A stretch of 64,000 nucleotides of DNA. Source: Planctomycetales bacterium (GTDB lineage: Bacteria; Planctomycetota; JAKEIC01). Location of the stretch: contig JAKEIC010000342.1 in the NCBI GenBank assembly GCA_022614695.1, forward strand, positions 4,012 to 68,011, written 5' to 3'. The translations under genes and the position numbers were made by a program. Positions 10,640 to 46,180 of the stretch are shown in pieces (positions within the stretch are counted from its first letter, which is position 1; every line of letters starts with the position of its first letter). The notes beneath the pieces are model-generated. The model was not told the DNA's origin. It was given only the letters and a program-made list of their open reading frames with translations, and did no database searches.

Positions 10640-10672
10640 GGAAGCTGCGATGGGTCCATAATAGCCGCCGCC

Positions 10673-13045
10673 GTGAACATCGGGCCCTACGAGGTGATCG
10701 GAGAGCTCGGCCGCGGCGGGATGGGCACCGTCTACCGCGCCCGGGACCCGGAGCTCCGGCGCGAGATCGCGCTCAAGGTGCTCGAGCGCGGCGCCGCCTC
10801 GGACGAGCGCGCCCGGTTCCTCCGCGAGGGACGGACCGGCGCGCGTCTGCGCCACCCGAACATCGTGACGGTCCACGCGGCGGGGGAGGCCGACGGCGCC
10901 GCCTTCATCGCGCAGGAGCTGATCGAGGGCGAGAGCCTCGCCCACGCCCTCGCCCGCGAGCCCTTCCCGCCGGAGCGGGCGGCGCGGCTCGTCGCGACGG
11001 TGGCGCGCGCCCTCGGCCACGCCCACCGCGAGGGCGTGGTCCACCGCGACGTGAAGCCGGGGAACATCCTCCTCGACCGGGCGGGCGAGCCCCACCTCGC
11101 CGACTTCGGTCTCGCGCGGACCGTCGAGGCCTCGGCCGCGCTCTCGCGCTCGGGCCAGGCGATCGGGACCCCGCACTACATGTCGCCCGAGCAGGCGAGC
11201 GGCCGGGTGGGCGTCGTGGACGCCCGCACGGACGTCTGGGGCTGCGGGATGGTCCTCTACGAGTGCCTCGCGGCCGCCCGGCCCTTCGAGGCCGAGGGGC
11301 CCATGGCCGTGATGACGGCGATCGTGCACGAGGAGCCCGTGCCGCTCCGGCGCCGGGTCCCCTCCGTGCCCGCAGCGCTCGACGTGGTCGTCGCACGCTG
11401 CCTCGAGAAGGAGCCGGACCGGCGCTACAGCTCGGCCGACGCCCTGGCCGAGGACCTGGAGAGGTACCTCGGGGGGCGTCCGGTCCTGGCTCGGGCCCCG
11501 GGGCTCGCGGAGAGGTGTCGCCGGCGCGTCCGCCGGAACCCGGCTGCCTACGGTGTCGGCGCGGCGCTCGGCGCCGTGGCGCTCCTCCTCGCCGGGGCGC
11601 TGGCCGTGCGCACGCTCCGCGAACGGGCCGGCCGCGCCGAGGAGGCGCGGCGCGCGGAGGAGCGCGTGCGGGCCCAGGCGGAGGGGTTCCTCGCCGAGGC
11701 GCGGGCGGCGCGGGAGGAGATCCGGCGCCTCGACGAGGCGCTCGCGAAGGTCCCCCGCGTGGAGGATCCCGCCGCCGAGGGGGGGGAGGGCGAGTCCGAA
11801 CGCGCCCGGCTCTGGCAGGAGCGCGAGGAGCAGACCGTGCTCGTCCGGAGCCACTACCTCGCCGTGCGTAGGATCCTCCGGGAGGAGCCCGGGCGGCCCG
11901 AGGCCCGGGAGGCGTCCGAGTCGCTCGGGGCCATCGCCTGGGCGCGACTCGTCGAGGCCGAGGCGGAAGGGAACCGCGAGGCGGCCGCGCGGTTCGAGGC
12001 GCTGCTGCGAGAGGCTGCCCCCGAGCGCTACGCGCAGGAGCTTCGCGGGGACGGCACGCTCACGCTCCGGACCGATCCTCCGGGGGCGGAGGTCGAGGCG
12101 CTCCAGTACGGGGAGGAGGACGGGAAGCTCGTCGCGAGGCCCTGGCGCCCCCTCGGGACGACTCCCATCGAGAAGGCGCCCTTGCCCATGGGCTCGTACC
12201 TCCTCGTCCTCCGGAAGGAGGGCTGCCGCGACGTCCGCTACCCGGTCCTCGTCGAGCGCGGGGAGGACGACGTCTCCCGCGACCCGGTCCCCCTCCTCAC
12301 GGACCGTCAGATCGGCAAGGGCTACGTCTGGGTCCCGCCGGGCGAGGCGATCCTCGGCGGCGACCCGAAGGCGCCCTACGCCTGGTCGCGGCGTAAGCGC
12401 TGGGTCGCGGGGTTCTGCCTCGCGGAGCGTGAGGTCACGTTCCGGGAGTACCGGGAGTTCCTCGGGGCGCTCCTCGCGAGGGGCGCCCCGGCGGCCGAGG
12501 TCGAGGCGCGCTGCCCGCGCCGGAGCGGGGTGGGTGGGGGCTACTGGGGCGTGCGCGATGGCCAGGTCGTCGAGCGCGGGCGCATCCCGGAGGAGTTCCC
12601 CGTCTTCGGCATCTCCTGGGGCGACGCCGACGCCTACGCCCGATGGCGGGGCGAGGTCGAGGGGCGCGGGGCGCGGCTCCCGACCGAGGAGGAGTGGGAG
12701 CGGGCCGCCCGCGGGGCCGACGGCCGGCTCTTCCCGTGGGGGAACGTCTTCCGCTGGGAGCGCGTCGTGGGCGGCCGGAGCCCGGTCCACGGCGAGCGGC
12801 CGCGCCCGAGACCCCCGGGGACCGCGGCCGACGACGTCTCGCCGTTCGGGGTGCGCGACCTCGCCGGGAGCGTCTACGAGTGGTGCGACGACCTGATCTC
12901 CGGCCGCAACCGCGCCGCGCGCGGCGGCGCCTGGGGCCACCTGAACACGAGCTACTTCCGCGCCGCATACCGGAACGGATACGACGAGACGCTCCTCGGG
13001 GACATGCACGGATTCCGGGTGCGGGCGGAGCCGAAGGCCCGATGA
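10673..13045 (+). CDS. Ser/Thr protein kinase - TM - coiled coil - FGE/sulfatase-modifying-factor domain protein
   Basis: GELGRGGMGTVY, ALKVL, HRDVKPGNILL, DFGLAR, YMSPEQ. TM AAYGVGAALGAVALLLAGALAV. C-terminal FGE-type domain (GYVWVPPGE...RLPTEEEWERAARG...YEWCDD...RGGAWG...GFRVRAE). GTG start 10673 fits the canonical position before the G-loop. Confidence 0.85.
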   Translation: MNIGPYEVIGELGRGGMGTVYRARDPELRREIALKVLERGAASDERARFLREGRTGARLRHPNIVTVHAAGEADGAAFIAQELIEGESLAHALAREPFPPERAARLVATVARALGHAHREGVVHRDVKPGNILLDRAGEPHLADFGLARTVEASAALSRSGQAIGTPHYMSPEQASGRVGVVDARTDVWGCGMVLYECLAAARPFEAEGPMAVMTAIVHEEPVPLRRRVPSVPAALDVVVARCLEKEPDRRYSSADALAEDLERYLGGRPVLARAPGLAERCRRRVRRNPAAYGVGAALGAVALLLAGALAVRTLRERAGRAEEARRAEERVRAQAEGFLAEARAAREEIRRLDEALAKVPRVEDPAAEGGEGESERARLWQEREEQTVLVRSHYLAVRRILREEPGRPEAREASESLGAIAWARLVEAEAEGNREAAARFEALLREAAPERYAQELRGDGTLTLRTDPPGAEVEALQYGEEDGKLVARPWRPLGTTPIEKAPLPMGSYLLVLRKEGCRDVRYPVLVERGEDDVSRDPVPLLTDRQIGKGYVWVPPGEAILGGDPKAPYAWSRRKRWVAGFCLAEREVTFREYREFLGALLARGAPAAEVEARCPRRSGVGGGYWGVRDGQVVERGRIPEEFPVFGISWGDADAYARWRGEVEGRGARLPTEEEWERAARGADGRLFPWGNVFRWERVVGGRSPVHGERPRPRPPGTAADDVSPFGVRDLAGSVYEWCDDLISGRNRAARGGAWGHLNTSYFRAAYRNGYDETLLGDMHGFRVRAEPKAR

Positions 13046-15000
13046 ATTCCGCTCCCGCTCCCGGCCCCCCCCGCGCGTACCTCACCGACTTCGGCCTCGC
13101 GAAGTCCGTCGCGACCGGCTCGAAGCTCACGCGCACCGGCCAGGCGCTCGGGACGCCGGCCTACATGAGCCCGGAGCAGGCCCGGGGCGAGGTCTCCTCC
13201 CTCACGCCGGCGACGGACGTCTGGGGCCTGGGCTGCGTGCTCTACGAGATGCTGGCGGGAAGGCAGCCCTTCGAGGCCGAGACAAGCGAGGGGGTGGTGG
13301 TGGGGCGGATCCTCCTGACCGAGCCGCCGCGGCTCCGGACCCGGCGTGGGGACGTCCCGGCAGGGCTCGAACGAGTGGTCCGGGTGACCCTCGCGAAACG
13401 GGGTCAGGACCGCTACCGGGGCTCGGACGCCCTGAGAGACGACCTGGGCCGCGTGCTCGTCGGGAGCCGGCCGCGCGCGCGGCTGCCCGGGTGGCGGCTC
13501 CGCACCGGGGCCGGGCTTGCCGTGGCTGTCGCGGCGGGGCTCGGTATCGCGGCCGCGTGGCCTCGGGAGTTGCCGCCCGCTCCCGCAGTCCGCGCGGGCC
13601 CTGCCTCATCGGAGGCCGATCTCCTCGCGGCTCGGGCCCGAGGGCTCCGGCAGGCGGATCCCCGGGAGGCGGCCAGGCTCCTGGGGCAGGCGCTGTCTGC
13701 AGCGCCCGAGCGGCACGACTGGAGGCTCGAGAGAGGGCTCCTCCTCTGGGCCGTGGGCCAGTGGAAAGCCGCGCGCGAGGAGTGGGGCTCGATCCCCGAG
13801 AGCGCGACCGTCGGGAGCCGCGCGAGGCTCTATCGGGGGCTCGAGGCGCTCTTCCGGCTGGAGGGCGGCGTCTTCCACGCGGAAGAGGGGCGACCCGACC
13901 TCGAAGCGGCGGCGGCGGGGAGGGGTGAGGTGGCCCAGATCGCTAGGGGAGCGCTGGCAACCCTGTCGCACGACTGGTCCGAGGCCCGCAGGAGGCTCCG
14001 GGACGCTCCGGGCTGGGAGGCGGCGCTCCTTCGTGGATACGTGGAAGCGGGAGCCGAGAAGGGGGACGAGGCCGCCGCCGTCCGCGAGTACGGTCGCGCC
14101 CTCGAGGAGGGGATCCCGTTCGCGTGGGTCCTGGCCAGTCGTGGGGCCGTGCGTCACGGCCTCGGAGACCTCCGCGGCGCGCTGGAGGATTACGACGCGT
14201 CGCTCAGGCTCCAGCCCGGCACCCAGGCGGCGCTCTGCAATCGGGGGCTCGCGAAGCGAGACCTCCGAGACCCCCGCGGGGCGCTCGCCGACTACGACGC
14301 CGCGCTCCGGATCTGGCCGGACGACCCGGTCGCCCTCAACGGCCGGGGCGCCGCCCGGGCGCTCCTCGGAGACCTCGTCGGGGCGATCGAGGACCACGGC
14401 GCCGCACTGAGGCTCCGGCCGGACTTCCACGACGCCCGTTCCTACCGCGGCGCCGCGCGGCAGACCCTCGGGGACTACCGCGGGGCCATCGAGGACTACG
14501 ACGCCGCCCTCGCCCTGCTCCCGGACTTCCCCGAGGTGCACCTGAATCGGGGGGGCGTCCGGTGGGTCCTCGGGGACGTCCCTGGGGCGCTCGCTGACTA
14601 CGACGCCGCGCTCAGGCTCCGGCCCGGCTACGACCAGGCCCTCGTGGCTCGGGCGAACGCCCGCCTCGATCTCGGGGAGGATGGCCCGGCACTCGAGGAC
14701 TTCACGGCCGCCGTCGCCGCCGCCCCCACGCCGCGTCTCCACGGGTCGAGGGCCCTGGCGCTCGCGCGGCTCGGCCGGCTCGACGAGGCGCTCGCCGCCG
14801 CGGCGACGGCGCTCTCGATGGACCCGAAGGGACCCCACTACGCGTACGCGGCGCGAGGGCTCGTGAGGCTGCGGCAGGGCCGGCGAGCCGAGGCGCTCGC
14901 CGAGTTCGAGACATTCGACTCGCTCGCGCCTCGGACGGACCCGCTCCGGACGCAGGTCGCCGGTTGGAGGGCGGAGGCGGCAGGCGACGTCCCGAAGTAG
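13042..15000 (+). CDS. kinase C-lobe-only (DFG-to-end, no N-lobe) - TM - TPR-repeat protein, paralog 1
   Basis: Starts MNSAPAPGPPRAYLTDFGLAKSVATGSKLTRTGQALGTPAYMSPEQ..., i.e. at kinase subdomain VII. No G-loop, VAIK Lys or HRD. TM GLAVAVAAGLGIAAAW, then about 10 TPR units. ATGA overlap with the kinase stop. Confidence 0.7.
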   Translation: MNSAPAPGPPRAYLTDFGLAKSVATGSKLTRTGQALGTPAYMSPEQARGEVSSLTPATDVWGLGCVLYEMLAGRQPFEAETSEGVVVGRILLTEPPRLRTRRGDVPAGLERVVRVTLAKRGQDRYRGSDALRDDLGRVLVGSRPRARLPGWRLRTGAGLAVAVAAGLGIAAAWPRELPPAPAVRAGPASSEADLLAARARGLRQADPREAARLLGQALSAAPERHDWRLERGLLLWAVGQWKAAREEWGSIPESATVGSRARLYRGLEALFRLEGGVFHAEEGRPDLEAAAAGRGEVAQIARGALATLSHDWSEARRRLRDAPGWEAALLRGYVEAGAEKGDEAAAVREYGRALEEGIPFAWVLASRGAVRHGLGDLRGALEDYDASLRLQPGTQAALCNRGLAKRDLRDPRGALADYDAALRIWPDDPVALNGRGAARALLGDLVGAIEDHGAALRLRPDFHDARSYRGAARQTLGDYRGAIEDYDAALALLPDFPEVHLNRGGVRWVLGDVPGALADYDAALRLRPGYDQALVARANARLDLGEDGPALEDFTAAVAAAPTPRLHGSRALALARLGRLDEALAAAATALSMDPKGPHYAYAARGLVRLRQGRRAEALAEFETFDSLAPRTDPLRTQVAGWRAEAAGDVPK

Positions 15001-15016
15001 GATCGCGCCCCGGGAG

Positions 15017-17215
15017 TTGACGCCCGGGAGAATCCTCGTGGGAACCAAGCCCGACACGGCGATGTCGGCACCCCGCCTCGAGCCCCGCGCCTTCCTCACC
15101 GACTTCGGCCTCGCGAAGTCCGTCGCGACTGGCTCGAAGCTCACGCGCACCGGCCAGGCCCTCGGGACGCCGGCCTACATGAGCCCGGAACAGGCCCGGG
15201 GCGAGGTCTCGTCGCTCACCACGGCGACGGACGTCTGGAGCCTCGGCAGCGTCCTCTTCGAGCTGCTCGCGGGGCGGCCGGCCTTCGAGGGGGAGACCTC
15301 CGCCGCGATCGTCGGGAGGATCCTCCTGGCGGAGCCGACGCGCCTCCGGAGGGTCCGGCCCGACGCCCCGCGTGGGCTCGATCGGGTGGTGCGGGTCGCC
15401 CTCGCCAAGCGGGCGCGGGATCGCTACCGCGACGCCGGCGCCCTGCGGGACGACCTCGCCCGGGTGCTCCGCGGCGAGTCGCCGCGGGCGCGCCCCGCGG
15501 GGACCTGGCGCCGGGTCGCGGTCCCCGTCGCGATCGCCTCGGGGGTGGTCCTCGCCCTCGCGGCCTTCCGCGGGCCGCGCGTCGCCGCACCGGCCGAGCT
15601 GCCCTCCTCCGGGGACTCCGAGGCCGAGAAGCTCGTGGTGGCGAGCCGCGCCCTCCGGCACTCCGACCCGCGGGGGGCCGCCGGGCTCCTCGGGCAGGCC
15701 CTCGCGCTCGATCCGTCGCGACCGGGGCTGCGTCTCGAGCGGGGACTCCTCCTCTGGGCGGTGGGAGAGGGCCCGGCGGCGCGGGAGGAGTGGGGACGCA
15801 TCGCGGCCGGGGTCCCCGAGGCCGCGGCCGCGAGGCTCTACCTCGGCCTCGAGGCCCTCTTCCACGCCGGGGGCGCCGACCCGCGGTTGGCGGAGGCCGA
15901 GGACCACCTGCGGAGGACCGCGGCCGGGGACGGCCCGGAGGCGCTCCTCGCCCGCGCCGCGCTCGCGGCCCTCGATTCCGAGTGGGGCTCGGCCCGCGCG
16001 CTGCTCCGCGACGCGAGGGGATGGGTCGCGGACGCCCTCCGCGGGTACGTGGAGGGGGTGGACCCGGCCGGGGATCCGCAGGCCGCGGCGCGCGCCGACA
16101 CGGCGGCGCTCGAGCAAGGCATCCCGTTCGCGTGGATCTACTGCAACCGGTCCGCCGCGCGGACACTGCTGGGCGACCCGCGCGGGGGACTCGAGGACGC
16201 CGAGCGGAGCCTCGCGCTCAGCGCCGGCATCGTCGAGGCGTACGCGAATCGCGGGGAGGCCCGGTCGCGCCTGGGGGACCGCGCCGGGGCGGTCGAGGAC
16301 TTCGGGAAGGTCCTCGACCATCGGCCGCGATCCTGGGAGGCCTGGACGAGGCGAGGCACCCTCCGGTACGAACTGCGGGACCTCCGCGGCGCCCTCGAGG
16401 ACTTCTCGGCGGCCCTCCGCCTGCGGCCGGACGACCCGGAGCGCCTCAACGACCGCGCCGGCGTCCTGCACGATCTCGGGGAGTACGACCGGGCCCTGGC
16501 CGACTGCGAGGCCGCGCTTCGGCTCCGACCCGAGTACCCCGACGCCCTGGCCAACCGGGGCGCGGTCCGCCTGGGGCTCAGCGACCCCCGGGGCGCGGTC
16601 GCGGACTTCGCGGCCGCCCTGCGGCTGCGTCCGGACATCCCCGAGATCCTGGTCAACCGGGGCATTGCCCGGCATGCGATGAGCGACCTCCGCGGGGCGG
16701 CCGAGGACTTCGACTCGGCCCTCCGGCTCCGGCCGGAGTATGACCAGGCCCACGCGGCGCGTGGGATCGTCCGGCGAGACCTCGGCGACCCGTCGGGGTC
16801 CGTCGAGGACCTCACCGCCGCCCTCGCCGTCCGCGCCGACGACCCGGAGTTCCTCGGCGCCCGGGGCCTCGCGCGGCGGGACCTCGGGGATCTCCCCGGG
16901 GCCCTCTCGGACCTGGATCGCGCGGTCGCCCGGGACGAGCGGAACCCGACGTACCGGAGCAACCGCGCCCTCACGCTCGCGCAGCTCGGCCGGCACGACG
17001 AGGCGCTCGCCGAGGCCGCGCGGGCCCTCGCGGCGGATCCGCAGGGCCCCTACTATGCCCATGCCGCCCGGGGGCTGGTGTTCCTTCGCCAAGCCGAACT
17101 CGCGAAAGCCCTCGCCGAATTCGAGCGCTTCGAGGCGCTCGCGGCGCCAGGGGACATGCTGCGGAAGGAGGTCGCCGCCTGGAGAAGAGAAGCGGCCGGA
17201 GGCCCCCAGAAGTAG
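15017..17215 (+). CDS. kinase C-lobe-only - TM - TPR-repeat protein, paralog 2
   Basis: ...RAFLTDFGLAKSVATGSKLTRTGQALGTPAYMSPEQARGE, TM VAVPVAIASGVVLALAAF, TPR array. TTG 15017 per ORF track. GTG 15038 preceded by GGGAG is a good alternative start. Confidence 0.7.
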   Translation: MTPGRILVGTKPDTAMSAPRLEPRAFLTDFGLAKSVATGSKLTRTGQALGTPAYMSPEQARGEVSSLTTATDVWSLGSVLFELLAGRPAFEGETSAAIVGRILLAEPTRLRRVRPDAPRGLDRVVRVALAKRARDRYRDAGALRDDLARVLRGESPRARPAGTWRRVAVPVAIASGVVLALAAFRGPRVAAPAELPSSGDSEAEKLVVASRALRHSDPRGAAGLLGQALALDPSRPGLRLERGLLLWAVGEGPAAREEWGRIAAGVPEAAAARLYLGLEALFHAGGADPRLAEAEDHLRRTAAGDGPEALLARAALAALDSEWGSARALLRDARGWVADALRGYVEGVDPAGDPQAAARADTAALEQGIPFAWIYCNRSAARTLLGDPRGGLEDAERSLALSAGIVEAYANRGEARSRLGDRAGAVEDFGKVLDHRPRSWEAWTRRGTLRYELRDLRGALEDFSAALRLRPDDPERLNDRAGVLHDLGEYDRALADCEAALRLRPEYPDALANRGAVRLGLSDPRGAVADFAAALRLRPDIPEILVNRGIARHAMSDLRGAAEDFDSALRLRPEYDQAHAARGIVRRDLGDPSGSVEDLTAALAVRADDPEFLGARGLARRDLGDLPGALSDLDRAVARDERNPTYRSNRALTLAQLGRHDEALAEAARALAADPQGPYYAHAARGLVFLRQAELAKALAEFERFEALAAPGDMLRKEVAAWRREAAGGPQK

Positions 17216-17227
17216 GATCGCGCCGTG
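17210..17227 (+). promoter_or_regulatory. conserved intergenic junction AAGTAGGATCGCGCCGTG (stop TAG + AGGA SD + 7 nt + GTG start)
   Basis: Identical 18-mer (20-mer with following CG) at 19199..19216, 21407..21424 and 23891..23908. Confidence 0.6.
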
Positions 17228-19204
17228 CGGGGCGCCGCGGCACCGATGACGTCCGGCCGCCCCGTCGAGCCCCGCGCCTTCCTCACCGACTTCGGCCTCG
17301 CGAAGGCCGTCGCGACGGGCTCGAGATTCACGAGGTCCGGCGACGCCCTGGGGACCCCGGCCTACATGTCCCCCGAGCAGGCGCGCGGAGAGGCGTCGTC
17401 GCTCACGCCCGCGACGGACGTCTGGTCGCTCGGAGGGACGCTCTACGAGATGCTGGCCGCTCGGCCGCCGTTCCCGGGGGAATCGGCGGCCGCGATCGTG
17501 GGCGCGCTCCTCACGCGGGAACCCCGGCGGATCCAACGGGACCGGCCGGACGTCCCGCGCGCCCTGGATCGGGTCCTCCGGTGCTCGCTCGCGAAGGCGG
17601 CGCGCGCGCGGTACGCCGACGCCGGGGCTGTCCGCGACGACCTCGACCGGGTCCTCCGGGGCGAGCCGCCCCGGGCGAGGCTCCCGGGCTCGGGGCGCCT
17701 CCAGGCCGCCGCGGCCGTCCTCGCCGCCGGGCTCGCCGCCTGGGTCGCGCTCCTCGTCCTCCCACGCGGGGAGGGCGACTCCCCTTCGCCCGTCTCTCGG
17801 CCCGCCTCCTCGGCGGCCGAGGCTCTCGCGGCGCGGGCCTCCGGCCTCCGGGAGGGCGACCCGGCCGCCGCGGCGCGGCGCCTCGCGGAGGCCCTTGCCC
17901 TGGAGCCGGCGCGTCCGGCGTGGCGCCTCGAACTCGGGCTGCTCCTCTGGGCGCTCGGCGATGGCGAGGCGGCCCGGGCGGAGTGGGGCGGGGTCCCGCG
18001 AGAGGCGCCCGAGGGCCGGCGCGCGAGGCTCTACCGGGCTCTGGAGCCGCTCTTCCAGCTGCGGGAGCCCGGTTCCGCCTCGGGCGCGGACGCGGCCGCG
18101 CTCGGGGAGCTCGCCACCGGGGGCGACGCGGAGGCGCGCCTGGCCCGCGCGGCGCTCGCGTGCTCCTCGAGCCGCTGGCCCGAGACCCGGGCGGCTCTCG
18201 GGGCGCTGGAGGGCTGGGAGCCCGCCCTCCTGCGAGGCTACGTCGAGGCGATGGACCCTCGCGGCGACCCGACGGCGGCCGTCCGTGAGCTGTCCGCCGC
18301 GCTCACCGCCGGGATCCCGTTCGCTTGGGTCTACAGCCTCCGCGGGATGGCCCGCGAGGCCGCGGGCGATCTCCGTGGCGCGGAGGAGGACCAGACGGCG
18401 GCGCTCCGGCTGCTGCCGGCGTTCCCGGATGCGCTCACGAATCGGGGAACCGCCCGCTTGGGGCAGGGCCGGATCGCCGACGCGATCGCGGATCACACCG
18501 AGGCGCTGCGATACCGTCCCCGGGACGCCGCCGCGCTCAACAACCGCGCGAACGCCCGGCGGGCCGCGGGGGACTTGCGAGGGGCGGTCGCGGACTACTC
18601 CGCCGCGCTGGCGATCGAGCCCCACAACCCCGAGATGCTGAACAACCGGGGCCTCGCCCGGGCGATGCTGGGCGAATCGCGGGAGGCCTTCGCCGACGCC
18701 GACGCGGCCGTCCGTCTCCGGCCGGGGATGGCGGGAGCGTGGAACACGCGGGGCCTCGCGCGCTGGGGGCTCGGCGACTCCGCCGGGGCGATCGAGGACT
18801 ATTCGGCGGCCCTGCGCCTGGAGCCGCGGCGGCCGACGACCCTCCTGAGCCGCGCGCTGGCGAGGCGCGACCGCGGCGACCGCGAGAGCGCCCTCCGCGA
18901 CGTGGAGGAGGCGCTCGCCCTCGACCCCTCGCGGGCGACCGCCCACAGCAATCGGGCGCTCCTCCTGGCGGAGGTCGGCCGCGTGGGGGAAGCCCTCGCC
19001 AGCGCCGATCGGGCCCTCGCGATGGACCCGACGGGTGCGTACTACGCCCACGCCGCGCGCGGGCTGGTGCTGCTCCGCGAGGGAAGGAACGCCCAAGCCC
19101 TCGACGAGTTCGGGAAGTTCGATTCGCTCGCGGCGCCGGGGGACCCGCTCCGGAGGGACGTCGCCGTCTGGAAGGCGGAGGCGGCCGGGGGCGTCCCGAA
19201 GTAG
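17225..19204 (+). CDS. kinase C-lobe-only - TM - TPR-repeat protein, paralog 3
   Basis: VRGAAAPMTSGRPVEPRAFLTDFGLAKAVATGSRFTRSGDALGTPAYMSPEQ. GTG start 9 nt after upstream stop with AGGA SD. Confidence 0.7.
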   Translation: MRGAAAPMTSGRPVEPRAFLTDFGLAKAVATGSRFTRSGDALGTPAYMSPEQARGEASSLTPATDVWSLGGTLYEMLAARPPFPGESAAAIVGALLTREPRRIQRDRPDVPRALDRVLRCSLAKAARARYADAGAVRDDLDRVLRGEPPRARLPGSGRLQAAAAVLAAGLAAWVALLVLPRGEGDSPSPVSRPASSAAEALAARASGLREGDPAAAARRLAEALALEPARPAWRLELGLLLWALGDGEAARAEWGGVPREAPEGRRARLYRALEPLFQLREPGSASGADAAALGELATGGDAEARLARAALACSSSRWPETRAALGALEGWEPALLRGYVEAMDPRGDPTAAVRELSAALTAGIPFAWVYSLRGMAREAAGDLRGAEEDQTAALRLLPAFPDALTNRGTARLGQGRIADAIADHTEALRYRPRDAAALNNRANARRAAGDLRGAVADYSAALAIEPHNPEMLNNRGLARAMLGESREAFADADAAVRLRPGMAGAWNTRGLARWGLGDSAGAIEDYSAALRLEPRRPTTLLSRALARRDRGDRESALRDVEEALALDPSRATAHSNRALLLAEVGRVGEALASADRALAMDPTGAYYAHAARGLVLLREGRNAQALDEFGKFDSLAAPGDPLRRDVAVWKAEAAGGVPK

Positions 19205-19216
19205 GATCGCGCCGTG
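19199..19216 (+). promoter_or_regulatory. conserved junction motif copy
   Basis: AAGTAGGATCGCGCCGTG. Confidence 0.6.
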
Positions 19217-21412
19217 CGGGGCGACGCGGCGCCAATGACGTCTGGTCCCCCCCTCGAGCCTCGCGCCTTCCTCACCGACTTCGGCCTGGCGAAAGCCGTC
19301 GCGACCGGCTCGAAGCTGACTCGGACTGGCGAGGCGCTCGGCACGCCGGCCTACATGTCCCCCGAGCAGGCGCGTGGGGAGATCTCCTCGCTCAGCCCTG
19401 CGACGGACGTCTGGAGCCTCGGCTGCGTCCTGTACGAGCTGCTCGCCTCCCGGCCCCCGTGGCAGGGGGGAACGACGGCAGCCGTCATCGCGGGGGTGCT
19501 CGCTCGCGAGCCCGTCCCGATCCGCAGGGTCCGATCTGACGTTCCGCCGGGCGCGGAGTCGGTCCTGATTCAGACCTTGGCGAAGGCGCAGAGAGACCGC
19601 TATCGCGATGCGGGCCCGCTGCGCGACGACCTCGAGCGGTTGCTCCGCGACGAGCGGCCCCTGGCGCGTCGGCCCGGTCGTCGCCGGCGCCTCGTGCTGG
19701 GACTCGGCGCCGCGACCGGCGCGGCGGCGTGCGTCGTGGCCGCCGCCCTGCCCGGGCCGCCGGCGCTCCCGGCATCGTTGGCCCCTCCGCCGACGGCGGG
19801 GCGCGCGGAGAGCATCGTCCAGGCGGCCCTGCGGGTCCGTCCCGCGGACCCGGCGAAGGCCGCCGGACTCCTCGCGGAGGCGCTGGCACTCGAGCCCGCC
19901 TCAGCGGTCTGGCGGCGGGATCGAGCCGACTGTCTCCGCGAGTGCGGGGAGTGGAGGGAGGCGGTGGCCGAATACGACCGGGTCCTGGCGACCCTCCCCG
20001 GCGACCTCGCGGCCCGGTTCGGCCGAGGGCTCGCGAGGTGGCTCGGAGTCTCGACGGGGGACCGCACGCTCGGGAACCCCAAGCCCGACCTCGGGGACGT
20101 CGGCGCCCGCGACCCGGGCTGGCAAGGAGCCCTCTCCCGGGCCATCCTGGCGCACGACGCGGGACGCTGGGAGGACGCTGAGCGCGAGATCGCCTCCGCG
20201 CGCGATCGCACGGCGGCGCTGGGGATCAGCGCGCTGCTCCGCCACCACGGGGGGACCGGAGACCTGGAGGCACAGCGGCGCGCCATCCAGGAGTTCACCC
20301 AGGCGATCGAGCAGGGACCGCCCCAGCGGTGGCTCTACTACGAGCGAGGACACGCCAAGGAGATCGCGGCCGACCTGCGCGGGGCCCTCGAGGACTATAC
20401 GGCCTCGATCGAGCTGTCCGCGGAGTACAGCTCTGCCCGCATCCGACGCGCCCTCCTGCGGGCAAAGCTCGGGGACGCGCCCGGATCGGAGGAGGACTTC
20501 CAGGTCGCCTTCCGGAACACGACTCCCGATGCCGGACTCCACATCGAGAGGGCCTTCGCTCGCGTGACCTTGGGGCGCCTCGCCGAGGCGCTGGGGGACT
20601 ATGACGCCGCCCTCCGCCTGGATCCGGACAACGCCGAGGCCTATCACGGCCGCTCGAGCGTCCGCAAGGACCTGGGGGATCTCCGGGGCGCCGTCGAAGA
20701 TTGCTCCGCGGCGATCCGTCTCCGTCCCGCCTTTCCTGCAGCCTTGAGCAACCGCGGGGCGTGGAGGATGGCTCTCGACGAACCCCGCTCCGCGCTCGAG
20801 GACTTCGAGGCCTCGCTCCGCCTCCGGCCGAACGATCCGATCGCTCGGTTCAACCGGGGAAACGCGCGGTACGCCCTCGGGGAGCTGGCGGGTGCGGTCG
20901 ACGACTACACGGCCGTGATCCCCATGCGTCCGGACTCCCCGGAGCCGCTGAACAATCGTGGCAATGCCCGCCGCTGGCTCGGTGACCTGGCGGGCGCGAT
21001 CGAGGACTACGGCGCCGCGCTCCGCGTCCAGCCCGGGTTCATGCCGGCGCTCCGCAATCGGGCGGAGGCGCGGGAGAGGCTCGGAGACCTCTCCGGGGCA
21101 CTCGCCGACGCGGAGGCCGTGCTGGCGTCGCGTCCGGGATTCCCTCCGTGCCTCGCGACGCGGGCGCTCGTCCTCGCCCGCTCGGGGCGGCTGGACGAGG
21201 CGCTCACGGAGGCGGCCCGGGCCGTGGCGGCGGGCCCGGCGGCTGCGCCCCATGCCCACGCCGCCCGCGGCTTGGCCCTGCTCCGTCAGGGGAGGCTCGC
21301 GGACGCCGTGGCCGAGTTCGAGGAGTTCGAGTCGCACGCAGGCCGCTACGACCCTGTCCGCCCGGACGCCGCGACTTGGAAGGCGGAGGCCCTCCAGGGC
21401 GCCTCGAAGTAG
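19214..21412 (+). CDS. kinase C-lobe-only - TM - TPR-repeat protein, paralog 4
   Basis: Same architecture and junction as paralog 3. FLTDFGLAKAVATGSKLTRTGEALGTPAYMSPEQ. Confidence 0.7.
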   Translation: MRGDAAPMTSGPPLEPRAFLTDFGLAKAVATGSKLTRTGEALGTPAYMSPEQARGEISSLSPATDVWSLGCVLYELLASRPPWQGGTTAAVIAGVLAREPVPIRRVRSDVPPGAESVLIQTLAKAQRDRYRDAGPLRDDLERLLRDERPLARRPGRRRRLVLGLGAATGAAACVVAAALPGPPALPASLAPPPTAGRAESIVQAALRVRPADPAKAAGLLAEALALEPASAVWRRDRADCLRECGEWREAVAEYDRVLATLPGDLAARFGRGLARWLGVSTGDRTLGNPKPDLGDVGARDPGWQGALSRAILAHDAGRWEDAEREIASARDRTAALGISALLRHHGGTGDLEAQRRAIQEFTQAIEQGPPQRWLYYERGHAKEIAADLRGALEDYTASIELSAEYSSARIRRALLRAKLGDAPGSEEDFQVAFRNTTPDAGLHIERAFARVTLGRLAEALGDYDAALRLDPDNAEAYHGRSSVRKDLGDLRGAVEDCSAAIRLRPAFPAALSNRGAWRMALDEPRSALEDFEASLRLRPNDPIARFNRGNARYALGELAGAVDDYTAVIPMRPDSPEPLNNRGNARRWLGDLAGAIEDYGAALRVQPGFMPALRNRAEARERLGDLSGALADAEAVLASRPGFPPCLATRALVLARSGRLDEALTEAARAVAAGPAAAPHAHAARGLALLRQGRLADAVAEFEEFESHAGRYDPVRPDAATWKAEALQGASK

Positions 21413-21424
21413 GATCGCGTCGTG
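21407..21424 (+). promoter_or_regulatory. conserved junction motif copy
   Basis: AAGTAGGATCGCGTCGTG (one mismatch). Confidence 0.55.
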
Positions 21425-23896
21425 CGCGGCGACGCGGCACCGATGACATCCGGCCCCACAGTCGAGCCTCGCGCCTTCCTCGCCGACTTCGGCCTCGCGA
21501 AAGCCGTCGCGACCGGCTCGAAGCTGACCCGCACTGGCCAGGCCCTCGGCACCCCGGCGTACATGTCACCCGAGCAGGCGCGGGGGGAGGTCTCCGCGCT
21601 CACCCCCGCGACGGACCTGTGGAGTCTCGGGTGCGTCCTCTACGAGATGCTCGCCAGCCGCCCACCGTTCGAGGGCGACACGGACGCCGCTGTGGTGGGC
21701 AACGTCATATTCGCGGAATCGCCGAGGCTGCGGACCCTCCGGGCAGACGTCTCGCAGGGCCTCGAGTGCGTCGTGCGGGTATGCCTTGGGAAACGCGTCC
21801 AGGACCGGCACACGGAGGCGGGGGCGCTGAGGGACGACCTCGACCGCGTGCTCCGAGGCGAGAGGCCGACGGCGCGTCCCGACGGGTCATGGGTGCGGAA
21901 GGCCGCGGTGGCCGCCCTCTGCGTGGCCTCGGTCTCGTGGGCCGCTGCCTACACCTTGCGGGGGCGGGGGCCGGAGGGACTCCCCGCGACAGCCTCCTCC
22001 TCGCCTTCGGCCGCGGAGGCGCTCGCGACCAGGGCCCGGGCCCTGCGGCAGTCGGACCCCCGCCGGGCGGCCGAGGTCCTCCGGGCGGCGCTCGAACGGG
22101 AGCCCTCGCGGGACGACCTGCGGCTAGAGAGGGGCCTCCTCCTCTGGGCGGTCGGAGAGAACGCGGAGGCCCGCGAGGAGTGGGGCCGGATCGGGTACGG
22201 GTCCTCCGAAGGGACGCAGGCGAAGCTCTTCCTCGCCCTCGAAGTGTTCTTCCGGATGGCGGGAGCCGAATCGCGGCCGCACCTCGTGGCCCTGAGGGAG
22301 GCCCCGGGCCGGGTGGGAAGTCTCGCTCGCGGGGCCGTCCGGGTGCTCGACAGTGAGTGGTCGCGGGCCCGGGAGGACCTCAGGGGAGTCGAGGGCTGGG
22401 AGGCGCACCTGCTCCGGGGCTACATCGAGAGTTGGGACCCCGCGGGCGACCGCGCGGCGGCGGTGCGGGCGTACGGGTCCGCACTCGACTCCTGGATACC
22501 CTTCGCCTGGGCCTGGAACAACCGCGGCGTCGCGAGGCGGGCGATCGGGGAGGACGCGGGGGCGGTGGCGGACTACAGCCGTGCCCTCCAGCTGGACCCC
22601 CGCTACGCGGAGGCCTGGAACAACCGCGGCAACGCGAAGGGGCGCCTCGGGGACCACGCCGCGGCTGTGGCGGACCTGGACCGCGCCCTCGAGCTCAACC
22701 CGCGGTACGCGGATGCCTGGAACAACCGCGGCGCTGCGAAGCGGGCCCTCGGGGACTACGCGGGGGCTGTGGCCGATCTCGACCGCGCCCTCGAGCTCGA
22801 CCCGCGGTACGCGACGACTTGGCACAACCGCGCTGTCGCGAAGCAGGCCCTCGGCGACCTCGCGGGAGCGATCGCGGACTACGGACGAGGCATCGAGCTG
22901 GACCCGCGGCTCCCGGCGGCCTGGAGCAACCGCGCTGCCGCCAAGGCCGCCCTCGGCGACCTGGCGGGGGCGATGGCAGACTGGGACCAAACCCTCGGGA
23001 TCGACCCGCAGTTCGCGGAGGCGTGGAACAACCGCGGCGGAGCGAAGCGGCTCCTCGGCGACCCCGCCGGGGCCCTGGCGGACCTGGACCATGCCCTCGG
23101 GCTCGACCCGCGGTCCGCGTGGACTTGGCACCACCGTGGACTCGCGAAGCGCGACCTCGGGGACCTCGCGGGGGCGGTGGCGGACCTGGACCGCGCCCTC
23201 GAGCTCGACCCGCGGAACGCGGGGGTCTGGAACAACCGCGGCCTCGCGAAGCGGGACCTCGGGGACCTCGCAGGGGCGGTCGCGGACCTGGACCGCGCCC
23301 TCGAGCTCGACCCGCGGCTCGCGGTATCCTGGTCGAACCGCGGCGCGGCGAAGCGGCGACTCGCGGACCACGCGGGAGCCGTCGCGGATCTCGATCGCGC
23401 CCTCGAGCTCGATCCGCGGAACGCGGCAGGCTGGGCGGACCGCAGCCTCGCGAAGCGGGACCTCGGGGACCCCGCAGGGGCGGTCACGGATGGCAACCGC
23501 TCCCTCGAGCTCGACCCGCGGAACGCGGCGGCCTGGAACATTCGCGGAGTCGCGAAGAGGGACCTCGGAGACCTCGCGGGCGCCCTCGAGGACCTCTCGA
23601 CCGCGATCCGCCTGGCGCCGGAGGGCCCATTCGGCTACAGCAACCGCGGTCTCGTGTTCGCGGGTCTCGGCCGCCTCGACGAGGCCCTCGCCGACGCCGA
23701 GAAGGCCCTCTCGATGGACCCGAAGGGGCCCTACTACGCCTACGCGGCCCGGGGGCTCGTGTTCATCCGGCAGGGGAAGCACGCGGCGGCCCTTGCCGAT
23801 CTCGAGCGCTTCGAGTCGCTCGCGATACCGGCCGACCCGCTCCGGAAGGACGTCGCCGCCTGGAAGGCGGAGGCGGCGCGGGGAGCGCCGAAGTAG
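21422..23896 (+). CDS. kinase C-lobe-only - TM - TPR-repeat protein, paralog 5 (longest TPR array)
   Basis: FLADFGLAKAVATGSKLTRTGQALGTPAYMSPEQ, about 17 very regular 34-aa TPR units (AWNNRG...DLDRALELDPR). Confidence 0.7.
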   Translation: MRGDAAPMTSGPTVEPRAFLADFGLAKAVATGSKLTRTGQALGTPAYMSPEQARGEVSALTPATDLWSLGCVLYEMLASRPPFEGDTDAAVVGNVIFAESPRLRTLRADVSQGLECVVRVCLGKRVQDRHTEAGALRDDLDRVLRGERPTARPDGSWVRKAAVAALCVASVSWAAAYTLRGRGPEGLPATASSSPSAAEALATRARALRQSDPRRAAEVLRAALEREPSRDDLRLERGLLLWAVGENAEAREEWGRIGYGSSEGTQAKLFLALEVFFRMAGAESRPHLVALREAPGRVGSLARGAVRVLDSEWSRAREDLRGVEGWEAHLLRGYIESWDPAGDRAAAVRAYGSALDSWIPFAWAWNNRGVARRAIGEDAGAVADYSRALQLDPRYAEAWNNRGNAKGRLGDHAAAVADLDRALELNPRYADAWNNRGAAKRALGDYAGAVADLDRALELDPRYATTWHNRAVAKQALGDLAGAIADYGRGIELDPRLPAAWSNRAAAKAALGDLAGAMADWDQTLGIDPQFAEAWNNRGGAKRLLGDPAGALADLDHALGLDPRSAWTWHHRGLAKRDLGDLAGAVADLDRALELDPRNAGVWNNRGLAKRDLGDLAGAVADLDRALELDPRLAVSWSNRGAAKRRLADHAGAVADLDRALELDPRNAAGWADRSLAKRDLGDPAGAVTDGNRSLELDPRNAAAWNIRGVAKRDLGDLAGALEDLSTAIRLAPEGPFGYSNRGLVFAGLGRLDEALADAEKALSMDPKGPYYAYAARGLVFIRQGKHAAALADLERFESLAIPADPLRKDVAAWKAEAARGAPK

Positions 23897-23908
23897 GATC
23901 GCGCCGTG
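23891..23908 (+). promoter_or_regulatory. conserved junction motif copy (before ggt)
   Basis: AAGTAGGATCGCGCCGTG. Confidence 0.6.
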
Positions 23909-25648
23909 CGCGGCCACGCCACGCTCGCGCTCCTCGCGGCCCTCGCCTGCTCGCGACCCGAGCCGGCAGCCGTCCCCGCGGCCGCGGCTGTCTCCGCGCC
24001 CGCCCCCCTCCGCACCGACGCCGCCGTCGCGACGGCCGAGCCGTTCGCCACGCACGCCGCCGCCGACGTGCTCGCCGACGGCGGGAACGCCGTGGATGCG
24101 GCCGTCTGCGCGGCGCTCACGCTCGCCGTCACCTACCCCTCTGCCGGGAACCTCGGGGGCGGGGGGTTCCTCGTCACGTGGGACCCCGGCACCCGCGAGG
24201 CGCACGCGCTCGACTTCCGCGAGACGGCGCCGGCGGCCGCGACTCGGGACATGTACCTCGGGCCGGACGGCAATCCCGACCCGGAGAAGAGCCTCGAAGG
24301 TCACCTCGCGGTCGGGGTCCCGGGCTCGGTCCGCGGGCTCTCCGCGGCGCACCGGAAGTTCGGTCGGCTCCCGTGGAAGAGCCTCGTCCTCCCCGCGATC
24401 CACCTCGCGGAGGAGGGGATCCCCGTCTCGGCCGGGCTCGCGGGCGAGTTCAAGCGCCACGCCGAGAAGCTCGCGAGGTATCCGGCGAGTGCGGCGGCGT
24501 TCCTCAAGGCCGACGGCTCGCCCCACGGGAAGGGCGACTCGTGGAAGCAGCCCGACCTCGCGAGGACCCTCCGCCGGATCGCCGAGGGCCCCTCGGACTT
24601 CTACACGGGCGAGACCGCCCGCCTCATCGTCGAGGAGATGAAGCGCGGGGGGGGGATCCTCGACGTCCACGACCTCTCGTGCTACTCGGCTGCCTGGCGC
24701 GACCCGATCCGGGTGCCGTACCGCGGGCGCGAGGTGGTCTCGATGCCGCCGCCGAGCAGCGGAGGCGTCTGCGTCGGGATGATCCTGCGGGTCCTCGAGG
24801 GCTGGACGCCCGCCGAGATCCGGCTCGACGACCCGGCCGGCGCGCACCGGTACGTCGAGGCGGCGCGGCGCGTCTACGCGGACCGGTCGCAGCACCTCGG
24901 GGACCCGGACCAGTGGCGGGTGCCGCTGGCGTGGCTCCTCTCGCCCGCGTACGCCGCCGAGCGGCGGGCGACGATCCGGATGGACGGGGCGACGGGGTCG
25001 CGTAACGTCGCGCCGGGCGCCGAGCCGAGGCGCGAGGGGGTCCACACCACCCACCTCTCTGTCCTCGACTTCGACGGCCGGGCCGCCTCGCTCACGACCA
25101 CGATCAACTCGGGCTACGGATCGCACGTGACCGTCGGCGGGGCCGGGTTCCTCCTCAACAACGAAATGGACGACTTCTCGGCGAAGCCCGGCGCCCCGAA
25201 CCTCTACGGGCTCGTGGGCGGCGAGGCGAACGCGGTCGCCCCGGGGAAGCGCATGCTCTCGTCCATGGCGCCGACCGTGGTCCTCGAGGACGGCCGCGCG
25301 CGGCTCGTCGTCGGGACCCCCGGCGGCTCGACGATCATCACGAGCGTCTTCCAGGTAGTGACTCGCGTCGTGGATCAGGGCGAGTCCCTGGAGGCGGCCG
25401 TCGCAGCCCCCCGGCTCCACCACCAGTGGCTCCCGGACAAGCTCTTCCACGAGAAGGGCCGGGCGCCCCCCCCGGCCCTCCTCGAGGCGCTCGCGAAGCT
25501 CGGCCACACGCTCGAGCCCCGCCCCGAGATCGGGGACGTCTGCGCGATCGCGGTGGACGGGGCCGGCCGCGCCACCGCCGTCGCCGACCCGCGGGGACGG
25601 GGGCTCGCGAGGACGCTCCCGGCCTGGTCTCGCCCCGAGACCAAGTGA
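23906..25648 (+). CDS. ggt: gamma-glutamyltranspeptidase (lipoprotein-type signal peptide)
   Basis: LAALACS lipobox. TTHLSVLD nucleophile-Thr region, GGSTIITSV, MLSSMAPT. 580 aa. Same junction motif as the preceding array. Confidence 0.9.
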   Translation: MRGHATLALLAALACSRPEPAAVPAAAAVSAPAPLRTDAAVATAEPFATHAAADVLADGGNAVDAAVCAALTLAVTYPSAGNLGGGGFLVTWDPGTREAHALDFRETAPAAATRDMYLGPDGNPDPEKSLEGHLAVGVPGSVRGLSAAHRKFGRLPWKSLVLPAIHLAEEGIPVSAGLAGEFKRHAEKLARYPASAAAFLKADGSPHGKGDSWKQPDLARTLRRIAEGPSDFYTGETARLIVEEMKRGGGILDVHDLSCYSAAWRDPIRVPYRGREVVSMPPPSSGGVCVGMILRVLEGWTPAEIRLDDPAGAHRYVEAARRVYADRSQHLGDPDQWRVPLAWLLSPAYAAERRATIRMDGATGSRNVAPGAEPRREGVHTTHLSVLDFDGRAASLTTTINSGYGSHVTVGGAGFLLNNEMDDFSAKPGAPNLYGLVGGEANAVAPGKRMLSSMAPTVVLEDGRARLVVGTPGGSTIITSVFQVVTRVVDQGESLEAAVAAPRLHHQWLPDKLFHEKGRAPPPALLEALAKLGHTLEPRPEIGDVCAIAVDGAGRATAVADPRGRGLARTLPAWSRPETK

Positions 25649-26883
25649 GCCCGTCCGAGCCCCCGCGCTCGCCGCTCGCGCGCCTCGCCGCCTCCCTCGC
25701 CCTCACGCGCGAGACGGTCGCCGTGCTCGTGGCCGTCTTCTGCCTCGAGCTCGGGGAGGAGCTCTGGAAGGAGTTCTTCCCCGACTACCTCCGGAATTCG
25801 CTCGGCGCGTCGGTCCTCGGAGTCGCGGTCTACTCCGCCGCGCGGAACCTGATGGAGGGGCTGCTCTTCCTGGGCGGCGCCTCGTTCACGCAGAGGCTCG
25901 GCGTCCGTGGGAGCATGGCCGTCGCGACTCTCGTCCCGCTCGCGGGCTACTTCCTGCTGCTCGGGTACGGGGTCCCGGGCCTCGCCGTCGCCGGGGCGCT
26001 CGCCGTCTCCTCGTTCGAGGCGCTCTCGGTCCCCTCGACGTTCGTGGTCGTGGGAGCGAGCGTCCCGAAGGGGAAGCGGACCCTCGCGTTCGCGATCCAG
26101 AGCATCCAGAAGCGGCTGCCGAAGATCGTCGGCCCCGCGCTCGCCGGCCTCGTCGTCGCCGCCTCGGTCCGCCTCGGGGGCGAGAGGGCGGGGCTCCGGC
26201 GCGGGATGCTCGGGCTGGTCGGGGCCGGGATGGCGCTCGCGTGCGTCTCGCTCGCTGTCCAGTGGTGGCTCCTCGCCCGGGCGACCCCGCCCCGCCCGCC
26301 CGCCCCGTGGCGGGCGGCCTGGCGCGCGATGGACCCCTTCCTCCGGAGGCTCCTCCTCTCCGAGTGCCTCGTCCGCTGGTGCGACTGGATGGTGCGGGAC
26401 TTCGCCGTCCTCTACGTCGTCTCGGAGCTCGCCCGGGACCGGGCGGAGTACGGGGGCCTCGTCGCGCTCCAGATGACGGTCGCGCTCGCGACCTACATCC
26501 CGGTCGCGTTCCTCGCGGACCGCGGGCGGGAGCGGCCGCTCATCGGCACGACGTTCGTCTTCTTCGCGCTCTTCCCGCTCGTCCTCTGGGGAGGCTGGAT
26601 CGTCGCCGGTCCGGCCGGTCTCGTCCTCGCCTACGTCGTGAACGGCCTCCGCGAGATCGGGGAGCCGGCCCGGAAGGCGATCATCACGACGCGCTTCCCC
26701 GAGGAGGTGCGGGCGGCGGGCGTGGGACTCTACTGGGGGATCCGCGCGTTCGTCCTCTGCCCCGCCCCGCTCGTCGCCGCCGCGATCTGGACGGCGGCCT
26801 CGCCCGGGGCGGTCCTCGTCGCGGCGTTCGGGTTCGGGGTGGCGGGGACGGCGATCTACGCGGTGACGGCGAGGAGATCCTAA
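25645..26883 (+). CDS. MFS-family transporter
   Basis: GTG 25645 overlaps the ggt stop (GTGA). About 12 predicted TM segments. Upstream part of ORF 25426..26883 is out-of-context read-through. Confidence 0.7.
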   Translation: MSPSEPPRSPLARLAASLALTRETVAVLVAVFCLELGEELWKEFFPDYLRNSLGASVLGVAVYSAARNLMEGLLFLGGASFTQRLGVRGSMAVATLVPLAGYFLLLGYGVPGLAVAGALAVSSFEALSVPSTFVVVGASVPKGKRTLAFAIQSIQKRLPKIVGPALAGLVVAASVRLGGERAGLRRGMLGLVGAGMALACVSLAVQWWLLARATPPRPPAPWRAAWRAMDPFLRRLLLSECLVRWCDWMVRDFAVLYVVSELARDRAEYGGLVALQMTVALATYIPVAFLADRGRERPLIGTTFVFFALFPLVLWGGWIVAGPAGLVLAYVVNGLREIGEPARKAIITTRFPEEVRAAGVGLYWGIRAFVLCPAPLVAAAIWTAASPGAVLVAAFGFGVAGTAIYAVTARRS

Positions 26884-27206: not shown

Positions 27207-27208
27207 AG

Positions 27209-38187: not shown

Positions 38188-38213
38188 AGCCTCGGGAGGT
38201 TAGCGCCCGAACC

Positions 38214-45880: not shown

Positions 45881-46180
45881 CTACCCCTGCGGCGGCGGGC
45901 CCCCCACGACGTCGTAGTGCTCCCGGAACCAGGACTCGGCGGTCCGGAACGCCTCGTCCTCGGAGGGGCCGATCCAGAACATCTCGGTCCGGGCGGGGGA
46001 GCCGAGCCCCGGCCAGCGCGCCGCGTCCTTCACGTCCGGGGGGAACCGGACCGAGACGACCCAGCGGGTCGTCCGCTCGTGCGCGGAGAGGATGACCGTC
46101 GTCTCGAGCGCGGGCTTCACCCCGCGGACCCGGATCGTGACGCGCCTTTCGCCCACGACGGCAGTGTACCTCGAGGTCAC
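45881..46180 (-). CDS. hypothetical 99-aa protein
   Basis: GTG 46180 overlaps the stop of the upstream TPR gene (GTGA). C-terminal tail of artefact ORF 45881..48010. No recognised domain. Confidence 0.35.
   Translation of the reverse strand: MTSRYTAVVGERRVTIRVRGVKPALETTVILSAHERTTRWVVSVRFPPDVKDAARWPGLGSPARTEMFWIGPSEDEAFRTAESWFREHYDVVGGPPPQG

Follow-up and report, generated by a model that had tools for sequence, protein, structure and literature searches.

Kinase-derived genes without an N-lobe, and a separate gene for the missing half, in a Planctomycetales bacterium

Genes of the array

We analysed a 64-kb stretch of DNA from a Planctomycetales bacterium (contig JAKEIC010000342.1 of assembly GCA_022614695.1; the whole stretch, with a G+C content of about 75%, is called the window below), in which a gene for a complete Hanks Ser/Thr kinase (gene 1) is followed by five genes that encode only the back half of a kinase domain, here termed C-halves (p1 to p5). 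The product of gene 1, identical to P0243 (790 aa), gave a Pkinase match over residues 6-260 (profile positions 1-260 of 263, E 1.5e-48), has the Gly-rich loop, VAIK Lys, alphaC Glu and HRD motif of PF00069 subdomains I-VIb, and carries PEGA ahead of an FGE-sulfatase domain at residues 550-783. For each of the five genes that follow, the Pkinase match starts only at position 139 of the 263 in the profile, that is at the DFG motif, with E values of 7e-15 to 4e-13, and is followed by matches to multiple families of tetratricopeptide repeats (TPR; TPR_1, TPR_2 and TPR_11, E down to 2e-85) that together make up a tandem-repeat superhelix. Every copy runs from beta8 and DFG through the activation segment and alphaF-alphaI to one transmembrane (TM) helix and an extracytoplasmic TPR superhelix. 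Confirming the original prediction for this locus, Pfam recovered both the complete kinase with its FGE domain and five N-lobe-less genes behind it, with matches that start where that prediction had placed them, although some details had to be revised. The kinase homology indeed starts 3-5 residues before DFG, but the reading frames open 12-25 codons before it and not about 5; the range 10673-26883 assigned to the array contains it but also spans the genes for a gamma-glutamyltranspeptidase (GGT) and an MFS transporter; and a sixth copy (p6), solitary and on the opposite strand, had been overlooked (Table 1).

Subdomains VII-XI (FLTDFGLAK...GTPAYMSPEQ...DVWSLG...DRY) are present in all six copies in the window, and the elements of subdomains I-VIb named above are found in none of them. 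With the N-lobe of gene 1 as query, tblastn over the six frames of the window returned three N-lobes only (gene 1 itself, 34558 on the plus strand and 60843 on the minus strand) and none upstream of any copy. Since each copy of the array also starts 9-16 nt past the preceding stop, or overlaps it by 4 nt, as in p1 (P0001, MCI0343436.1), whose ATG overlaps the stop of gene 1 (ATGA), we consider an N-lobe concealed by frameshift errors, which the original prediction had named among the findings that would undo it, to be ruled out. A split intein was likewise rejected, the leaders being 3-45 residues long, variable and, by eye, without C-terminal intein motifs.

Table 1. Genes and features of the array and its surroundings; positions refer to the window.
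Feature	Position	Strand	Remarks
Gene 1, Hanks Ser/Thr kinase with TM, PEGA and FGE-sulfatase	10673..13045	+	Pfam
p1, C-half, 652 aa, beta8/DFG to alphaI, TM helix and TPR ectodomain	13042..15000	+	Pkinase from 139, E 7e-15
p2, C-half	15017..17215	+	Partial Pkinase; AlphaFold model
p3, C-half, 659 aa (P0009)	17225..19204	+	GTG start, AGGA 7 nt upstream
p4, C-half, 732 aa	19214..21412	+	Partial Pkinase; junction and start as in p3
p5, C-half, 824 aa, most TPR units	21422..23896	+	Partial Pkinase
Junction TAGGATCGCGCCGTGCGCGGC: p5 stop, 9-nt spacer, GTG and first GGT codons	23894..23914	+	
GGT gene	23906-25648	+	Pfam; outside the array
MFS transporter gene	Within 23906-26883, after GGT		Pfam; outside the array
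p6, sixth, solitary C-half, directly after a TrkA_C gene	46177..48156	-	tblastn; Pfam from 139

An AlphaFold model of p2 (mean pLDDT 88.8) contained only alphaEF-alphaI before the TM helix (residues 149-171), and no two-lobed fold; the alphaEF to alphaI part scored about 90 and the 30-helix TPR solenoid above 95, whereas DFG and the activation loop scored 38-55. When the whole model was submitted to Foldseek, only TPR proteins were returned, with the TPR domain of O-GlcNAc transferase (1w3b) as the top match (E 9e-14).

With regards to expression, 15 of the 17 copies for which we had DNA carry a canonical start (ATG, GTG or TTG) 3-38 codons before FLTDFG, in most cases with a motif resembling a Shine-Dalgarno (SD) sequence 5-9 nt upstream. 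The likely start of p2 is a GTG 18 codons 5' of FLTDFG with GGGAG 7 nt upstream, and in p6 no ATG, GTG or TTG occurs between the upstream stop and DFG, the first ATG being the Met of YMSPEQ at 47916. A second, related species (GCA_040961615.1) has an array of at least six C-halves (locus L087), in which the following gene starts at an overlapping ATG 7 nt downstream of a GGGAGG that is part of the conserved C-terminal codons REGGR-stop. Two loci start right after divergently transcribed genes and must thus have promoters of their own. A promoter and terminator scan of positions 9000-27500 in the window found nothing, but such a scan is uninformative at 75% G+C.

The copies are old. The five in the array share 46-57% protein identity, with a synonymous divergence (pS) of about 0.53 over most of the gene, 0.35 in the activation segment and 0.48 at the 3' end, where by our own estimate the ceiling at this codon bias is about 0.57. 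Because orthologs of the two related species show synonymous differences of only 0.33-0.36, the copies must predate the species split. The third-position G+C content (GC3) is 0.88-0.93 in the correct frame, and in the ectodomains the raw ratio of nonsynonymous to synonymous differences (pN/pS) is about 0.8 between paralogs. Such identities and near-saturated synonymous sites exclude recent duplication or assembly collapse, as had been predicted, and a second, independent assembly of essentially the same genome (GCA_973348535.1, locus L082) has the same array, differing in one 34-residue TPR unit of p5 and one residue of p4, so that an assembly artefact could be ruled out as well. The claim of real, intact half-kinase genes, probably under selection, is supported. 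The p5 protein has 824 aa in the window (21422-23896) and 790 aa in L082:7898-10270, which is either real variation in TPR copy number or a collapse of near-identical TPR units in an assembly.

The manner in which the array grew can be read from its junctions. Near-identical copies of the junction ahead of GGT precede p3, p4 and p5 (17213-17233, 19202-19222 and 21410-21430, with the sequence TAGGATCGCGCCGTGCGGGGC) and, in part, p2 (14998-15012), and the related species has TAGGATCCGCCCGTG between its FGE kinase and GGT. This repetition shows growth by tandem duplication that carried the SD motif, the GTG and the first GGT codons along, the new copies thereby borrowing the translation start of a housekeeping gene. 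By eye, the leader DNA of p1 also resembles the ancestral kinase-GGT junction together with the first GGT codons of the related species. There, the genes of the syntenic locus follow one another as in the window (M28/PDZ peptidase, Memo/AMMECR1, FGE kinase, GGT and, at the edge of the locus, the beginning of another gene); the FGE kinase (91% aa identity) ends in TAG, GGT starts 9 nt later and the array is absent. Given that the copies predate the separation of the two species, a deletion between junction repeats probably removed the array in that lineage. At L088:7191-9920, an AAA_15/AAA_21 ATPase gene and a small ORF lie between Memo/AMMECR1 and the FGE kinase, and the window has neither at the corresponding place (~9200-10600).

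These comparisons also bear on gene 1, which had been proposed as the partner of the half-kinases. It is just 48-51% identical to the half-kinase family, in either half, and by sequence is a member of another kinase family. Its adjacency to the array is not conserved, the FGE kinase of the related species having no array behind it, and accordingly there is no support for a specific partnership; functional coupling was rejected on both grounds, and gene 1 is a neighbour of the array and not the cognate partner of the half-kinases.

The family and a separate gene for the missing half

The array belongs to a large, apparently lineage-specific family of membrane proteins. With residues 1-400 of p2 as query, 649 matches were obtained, of which the best 120 were examined in detail. 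About 115 of these start 3-52 residues ahead of DFG and lack an HRD motif. N-lobe-less homologs do recur, a point that the original prediction had wished to see checked, both in this genome and in the array of the second species. Among 68 named relatives, all 16 that were sampled had accessions between MCI0339671 and MCI0343656, in the same metagenome-assembled genome, "Planctomycetales bacterium", as p1. Extrapolating from these 16 of 68 accessions, the window's genome probably encodes at least about 64 C-half proteins, which in the public annotation are termed "tetratricopeptide repeat protein". Directly on the contigs of this genome we saw six C-halves in the window, three in L001, two in L083 and one in L086. 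Among the matches listed for GTDB species representatives there were only generic kinases (29-49% C-lobe identity), a result that is silent on the spread of the family. Full-length members exist too (P0113, P0094, P0038, P0042 and P0056), and P0242/P0113 (L085) is a stand-alone gene with no cassettes adjoining it.

When the N-lobe of the full-length P0094 was used as query, in a search that listed short proteins only and hence left the census of N-halves and full-length members incomplete, the best matches were two short but complete proteins, P0121 (167 aa) and P0122 (163 aa). Both contain the G-loop, a VAIK-type Lys, alphaC, alphaE and HRDVKPGNILIGRK, followed by a short Pro/Ala-rich tail and a TAG stop; P0121 extends through HRD and beta7, and in it all catalytic motifs are intact. 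The boundaries are complementary, as this N-half ends in ...HRDVKPGNILIGRK and the C-halves begin with (P)RAFLTDFG, with neither gap nor duplication, and a second gene in the same genome thus encodes exactly the part that the C-halves lack. P0121 (MCI0340424.1, locus L083) falls within the accession range of the sampled family members; L083 and L082 come from one assembly, and because L082 is nearly identical to the window, P0121 belongs to the window's own genome. The gene order at L083 is N-half, TfoX_N, C-half P0015 and a further C-half with a GTGA overlap. In its N-lobe, P0121 is 74% identical to P0094, 69% to P0113 and 65% to P0038, but only 51% to gene 1 of the window, from which we conclude that the N-half, and not the FGE kinase, is the cognate of the C-half family.

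In the second species an orthologous N-half (86% nt identity, locus L084) lies directly upstream of a C-half. The two share one frame (L084:2228-2800) with a single TAG between them, and the C-half, starting REAGGEIVPRPFLADFGLAK..., has ATC after a G-rich stretch 5-6 codons before FLADFG, a feature also found in p6. This could reflect a non-canonical start, reinitiation, read-through or a recent nonsense mutation. Between the species the N-half has a pN/pS of 0.19, and of 0.12 from alphaD to beta7, similar to the 0.17 for the FGE kinase, 0.23 for Memo/AMMECR1 and 0.31 for GGT. As the sequence before the TAG looks homologous in both species, the stop of the N-half is probably ancestral.

How the N-lobe was lost can be traced from relics in the C-half leaders. 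These differ, with a native start and G-loop kept in P0024, P0063 and P0015, among others, the end of the catalytic loop in p2 (PGRILVGTK) and an in-frame piece of alphaE in p6 (AIERARDVANALAA). Together with the 74% identity between the C-half P0024 and the full-length P0094, they indicate that the N-lobe was deleted several times independently. The loss always extends to just before beta8, and never into beta8 or DFG.

What remains has been kept with unusual strictness. Over 114 C-halves, no other part of the protein is as conserved as FLTDFGLAK..TGS.LTRTG.ALGTPAYMSPEQARGE; conservation reaches 98% or more for DFGLA, MSPEQ, the Thr of GTP, Asp and Trp of DVW and the Arg of DRY, and 90-98% or more for the two Thr of LTRTG, while the remaining C-lobe and the ectodomains vary freely, the latter being about 50% identical. 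All 120 listed relatives have the DFG Asp; in the C-halves, the VAIK Lys and HRD have gone with their segment. By PKA numbering, D184 is the DFG Asp, which binds Mg-ATP, T201 the P+1 Thr, in contact with the catalytic Asp and Lys, and D220 the alphaF Asp, which holds the HRD loop; the DFG Phe forms part of the regulatory spine. The partners of the conserved C-half residues, that is the Mg-ATP site and the catalytic loop, thus lie in the absent half. The loci with DNA contained no orthologous C-half pair for a dN/dS estimate, the best cross-species pair being 58% aa identical.

The AlphaFold model of the full-length P0042 is informative in two respects. The blocks matching DFG and the activation loop score pLDDT 69-85 there, as compared to 38-55 in p2, and a 31-residue disordered insert (pLDDT 41-53) sits exactly between beta7 and beta8, with a canonical kinase fold around it. 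Since the fold tolerates this insert, the cut site is a permissive surface loop.

A palindromic element of low G+C content, about 97 nt long, occurs three times in the array of the second species (L087:2335-2470, 3977-4110 and 5704-5840), with arms GTTTGTCG and CGACAAAC, each twice, and an RNA fold of -55 kcal/mol (z -7.7). Its in-frame translation makes up the leader of several C-halves (...VSGLSFAVCRSEE..QRQ.ENDKPQTT...), and the same peptide is found in P0042, P0093, P0043, P0013, P0033 and P0017; in P0042 it is the beta7-beta8 insert itself, exactly at the split point. The window has no copy of the element, which is similar to palindromic elements inserted in frame in Rickettsia genes. One member of that same array is split into ORFs of 239 and 280 aa by a frameshift at a C-run (L087:2335-3980), which is either a sequencing error or a true pseudogene.

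A possible split kinase and its alternatives

The reading that we favour, with a probability of roughly 40%, is that of a split kinase, in which one N-half would complement many receptor C-halves. The C-halves would become catalytically competent through non-covalent complementation with the P0121 N-half, a soluble component with the ATP site and catalytic loop that would be shared by dozens of them. Each receptor would bring in a fast-diversifying TPR sensor joined to DFG, an activation segment and the substrate-binding half, and its ability to form an active kinase would depend on ligand binding to the TPR ectodomain. More tentatively still, we suggest that a single soluble N-half may be common to more than 60 membrane receptors, with assembly of the active site as the signalling step. 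Complementation in trans would account for the sharp, complementary boundaries and the invariant catalytic residues of the C-halves, as well as for the conserved N-half gene, its operon with C-halves and the repeated, tolerated loss of the N-lobe, recurrent in-frame loss being expected if an N-half is available in trans. A separate gene for exactly the missing half, located outside the window, points to such complementation rather than to the decoy or allosteric roles considered in the original prediction.

A number of observations weigh against a split kinase. A single N-half gene was seen, in an incomplete census, whereas the C-halves probably number at least about 64. The family also has full-length members, the array in the window sits behind an unrelated full kinase and not behind an N-half, and a canonical start codon is missing in two of the 17 copies (p6 and the C-half of L084). 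The adjoining pair in the second species may represent a full-length gene interrupted by a nonsense mutation, recombination into full-length genes would likewise be compatible with the conserved DFG and other motifs, and we know of no natural split Hanks kinase that could serve as precedent.

Several other explanations should be weighed against the same evidence. We regard it as rather unlikely, though as the main alternative, that the C-halves are non-catalytic receptors or scaffolds, whose activation loop (TGSKLTRTG...GTPAYMSPEQ) and alphaG face serve as phospho-acceptor or docking surface for complete kinases; the FGE kinase or full-length members would phosphorylate the loop, which would then recruit downstream factors. 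The highly conserved Thr pair of LTRTG, which by eye is found at the phospho-Thr positions of PknB, would agree with this, as would the stop overlap of p1 with gene 1, suggesting co-expression, the many complete kinases in the genome (two more of them in the window) and the prediction by AlphaFold that the alphaF-alphaI module folds alone. Left unexplained, however, are the invariant DFG Asp and Phe, P+1 Thr and alphaF Asp over some 114 copies and a conserved N-half gene with an exactly complementary end, no array lies next to the FGE kinase in the related species, and most arrays have no kinase in front. Improbable, in our judgement, are the recombination cassettes also raised in the original prediction, namely silent or orphan 5'-truncated donors that swap the sensor end of a full-length kinase by way of the activation-segment DNA. 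Their truncation at variable break points with the same conserved 5' segment in all, their co-directional arrays, the two copies without start codon and a pS lowered from about 0.53 to 0.35 in the 5' segment and to 0.48 at the 3' end are what cassettes would display, and the reduced divergence at the gene ends leaves room for some gene conversion. Yet the copies do carry translation signals, with starts in all but two of the 17 and mostly SD-like motifs, a strong SD within the C-terminal codons of one array and promoter regions of their own after divergent genes for some copies. Nor did we find, in the incomplete census of full-length genes, a near-identical expression locus: the best full-length C-part is 74% identical to a C-half and the others 53-57%, the full-length P0242/P0113 stands alone, the FGE kinase at the head of the array is too divergent to recombine, and with a median best identity of 51% among the C-halves no near-identical copies and no recent conversion tracts were visible.

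Less probable again is slow decay, with the C-halves as functionless truncated duplicates of kinase-TPR genes that stay open because stops are rare in DNA of 75% G+C. Long spurious ORFs are in fact common in the window (for example 1464 aa on the opposite strand), the ectodomains have the high raw pN/pS given above, one member of the second species' array is split by the C-run frameshift and two copies have lost their start. Decay is nevertheless difficult to combine with a frame, TM helix, TPR register and kinase motifs kept in more than 100 copies in spite of saturated synonymous sites, with a GC3 of 0.88-0.93 in the correct frame, with retained start codons and SD motifs, or with the overall AlphaFold score of 88.8. 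We give hardly any credence, finally, to recoding, by which TAG read-through would yield full-length proteins or poly-proteins. The N-half and C-half of L084 do share one frame across one TAG, with a startless C-half, and p2 to p5 lie in one frame with TAG plus 9 nt between them, but any spacer, including one of 9 nt, has a chance of one in three of preserving the frame, a TfoX_N gene separates N-half from C-half in the window's genome and read-through between successive C-halves would leave the second kinase part across the membrane from where it belongs. About half of the ordinary genes in the window have TAG as their stop, which is thus a normal one here, by which we also rejected TAG reassignment; the window, to which the search was confined, contained no suppressor tRNA.

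Relation to known systems and further observations

The C-halves match the C-terminal two thirds of PknB-like receptor Hanks kinases with TPR or FGE sensors (subdomains VII-XI, juxtamembrane part, TM helix and repeats), but unlike these they have no subdomains I-VIb, in about 115 of the best 120 relatives, and the family has probably expanded to about 64 or more copies in one genome. With pseudokinases they share a kinase-derived module that cannot phosphorylate alone and would act via partners; pseudokinases, however, keep the two-lobed fold and lose catalytic residues, whereas the C-halves lack half of the fold and have an invariant DFG Asp, P+1 Thr and alphaF Asp in what remains. Ligand-gated split kinases have reportedly been engineered, by Camacho-Soto et al. 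in 2014. As in such constructs, and more generally in natural enzymes split over two genes, there are here two complementary fragments of a catalytic domain, cut in a surface loop, that could reassemble, although in the present case the split would be natural and a single N-fragment would serve many membrane-bound C-fragments. The arrays further resemble pilS cassettes and orphan CdiA-CT/Rhs modules in being 5'-truncated, in their conserved 5' homology segment and in lying downstream of a complete gene, but differ in that most C-half copies have a start, an SD-like motif and sometimes a promoter region, and that no near-identical expression locus or mosaic conversion tracts were found. As an analogy of logic only, chemoreceptors and CheA likewise combine many membrane sensors with one shared soluble catalytic component; the C-half receptor would itself contribute half of the catalytic domain, and there is no homology.

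While the domains are all known, the novelty lies in their architecture, in how large the family is and in the existence of a separate complementary half. The text of a 2025 atlas of bacterial Ser/Thr kinases, and likewise that of a 2025 review of bacterial pseudokinase families, makes no mention of truncated, N-lobe-less, fragmented or split kinases, and text searches of the literature brought up nothing of relevance on kinases that are split or truncated in nature, in line with the original prediction, which did not recognise a described family here. Protein kinases are treated as single-chain enzymes and bacterial kinase catalogues count complete domains only, so that about 1.5% of the proteins of this genome (~64 of ~4,000) would be missed or mislabelled as "tetratricopeptide repeat protein". 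As the C-half family demonstrates, a cut between beta7 and beta8 of a kinase domain is possible, and the back half can be kept in dozens of copies. Should the halves reassemble, they would be the first natural counterpart of engineered split kinases, a new way to wire many sensors to one catalytic unit and, for protein engineers, a ready-made split site already tested by evolution. Otherwise they would still form an unusually large and fast-evolving class of kinase-derived receptors, in which the strictly conserved DFG and activation segment need another explanation.

Some further features were noted in the surroundings. The window has two more complete Hanks kinases, at 33817-36612 (+) and 58081-61044 (-), with weak TPR-like C-terminal regions; their C-lobes are 45-49% identical to the half-kinase family, which places them in different kinase families. 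A protein of 1504 residues, made up of five DUF4388 domains according to Pfam (E 1.9e-83), is encoded at 38190-42704 (+). Outside the window but in its genome, a prophage-like block with DUF2924, a large serine recombinase, a LexA/S24-like repressor and HNH lies directly downstream of a C-half pair (L001:7524-16041).

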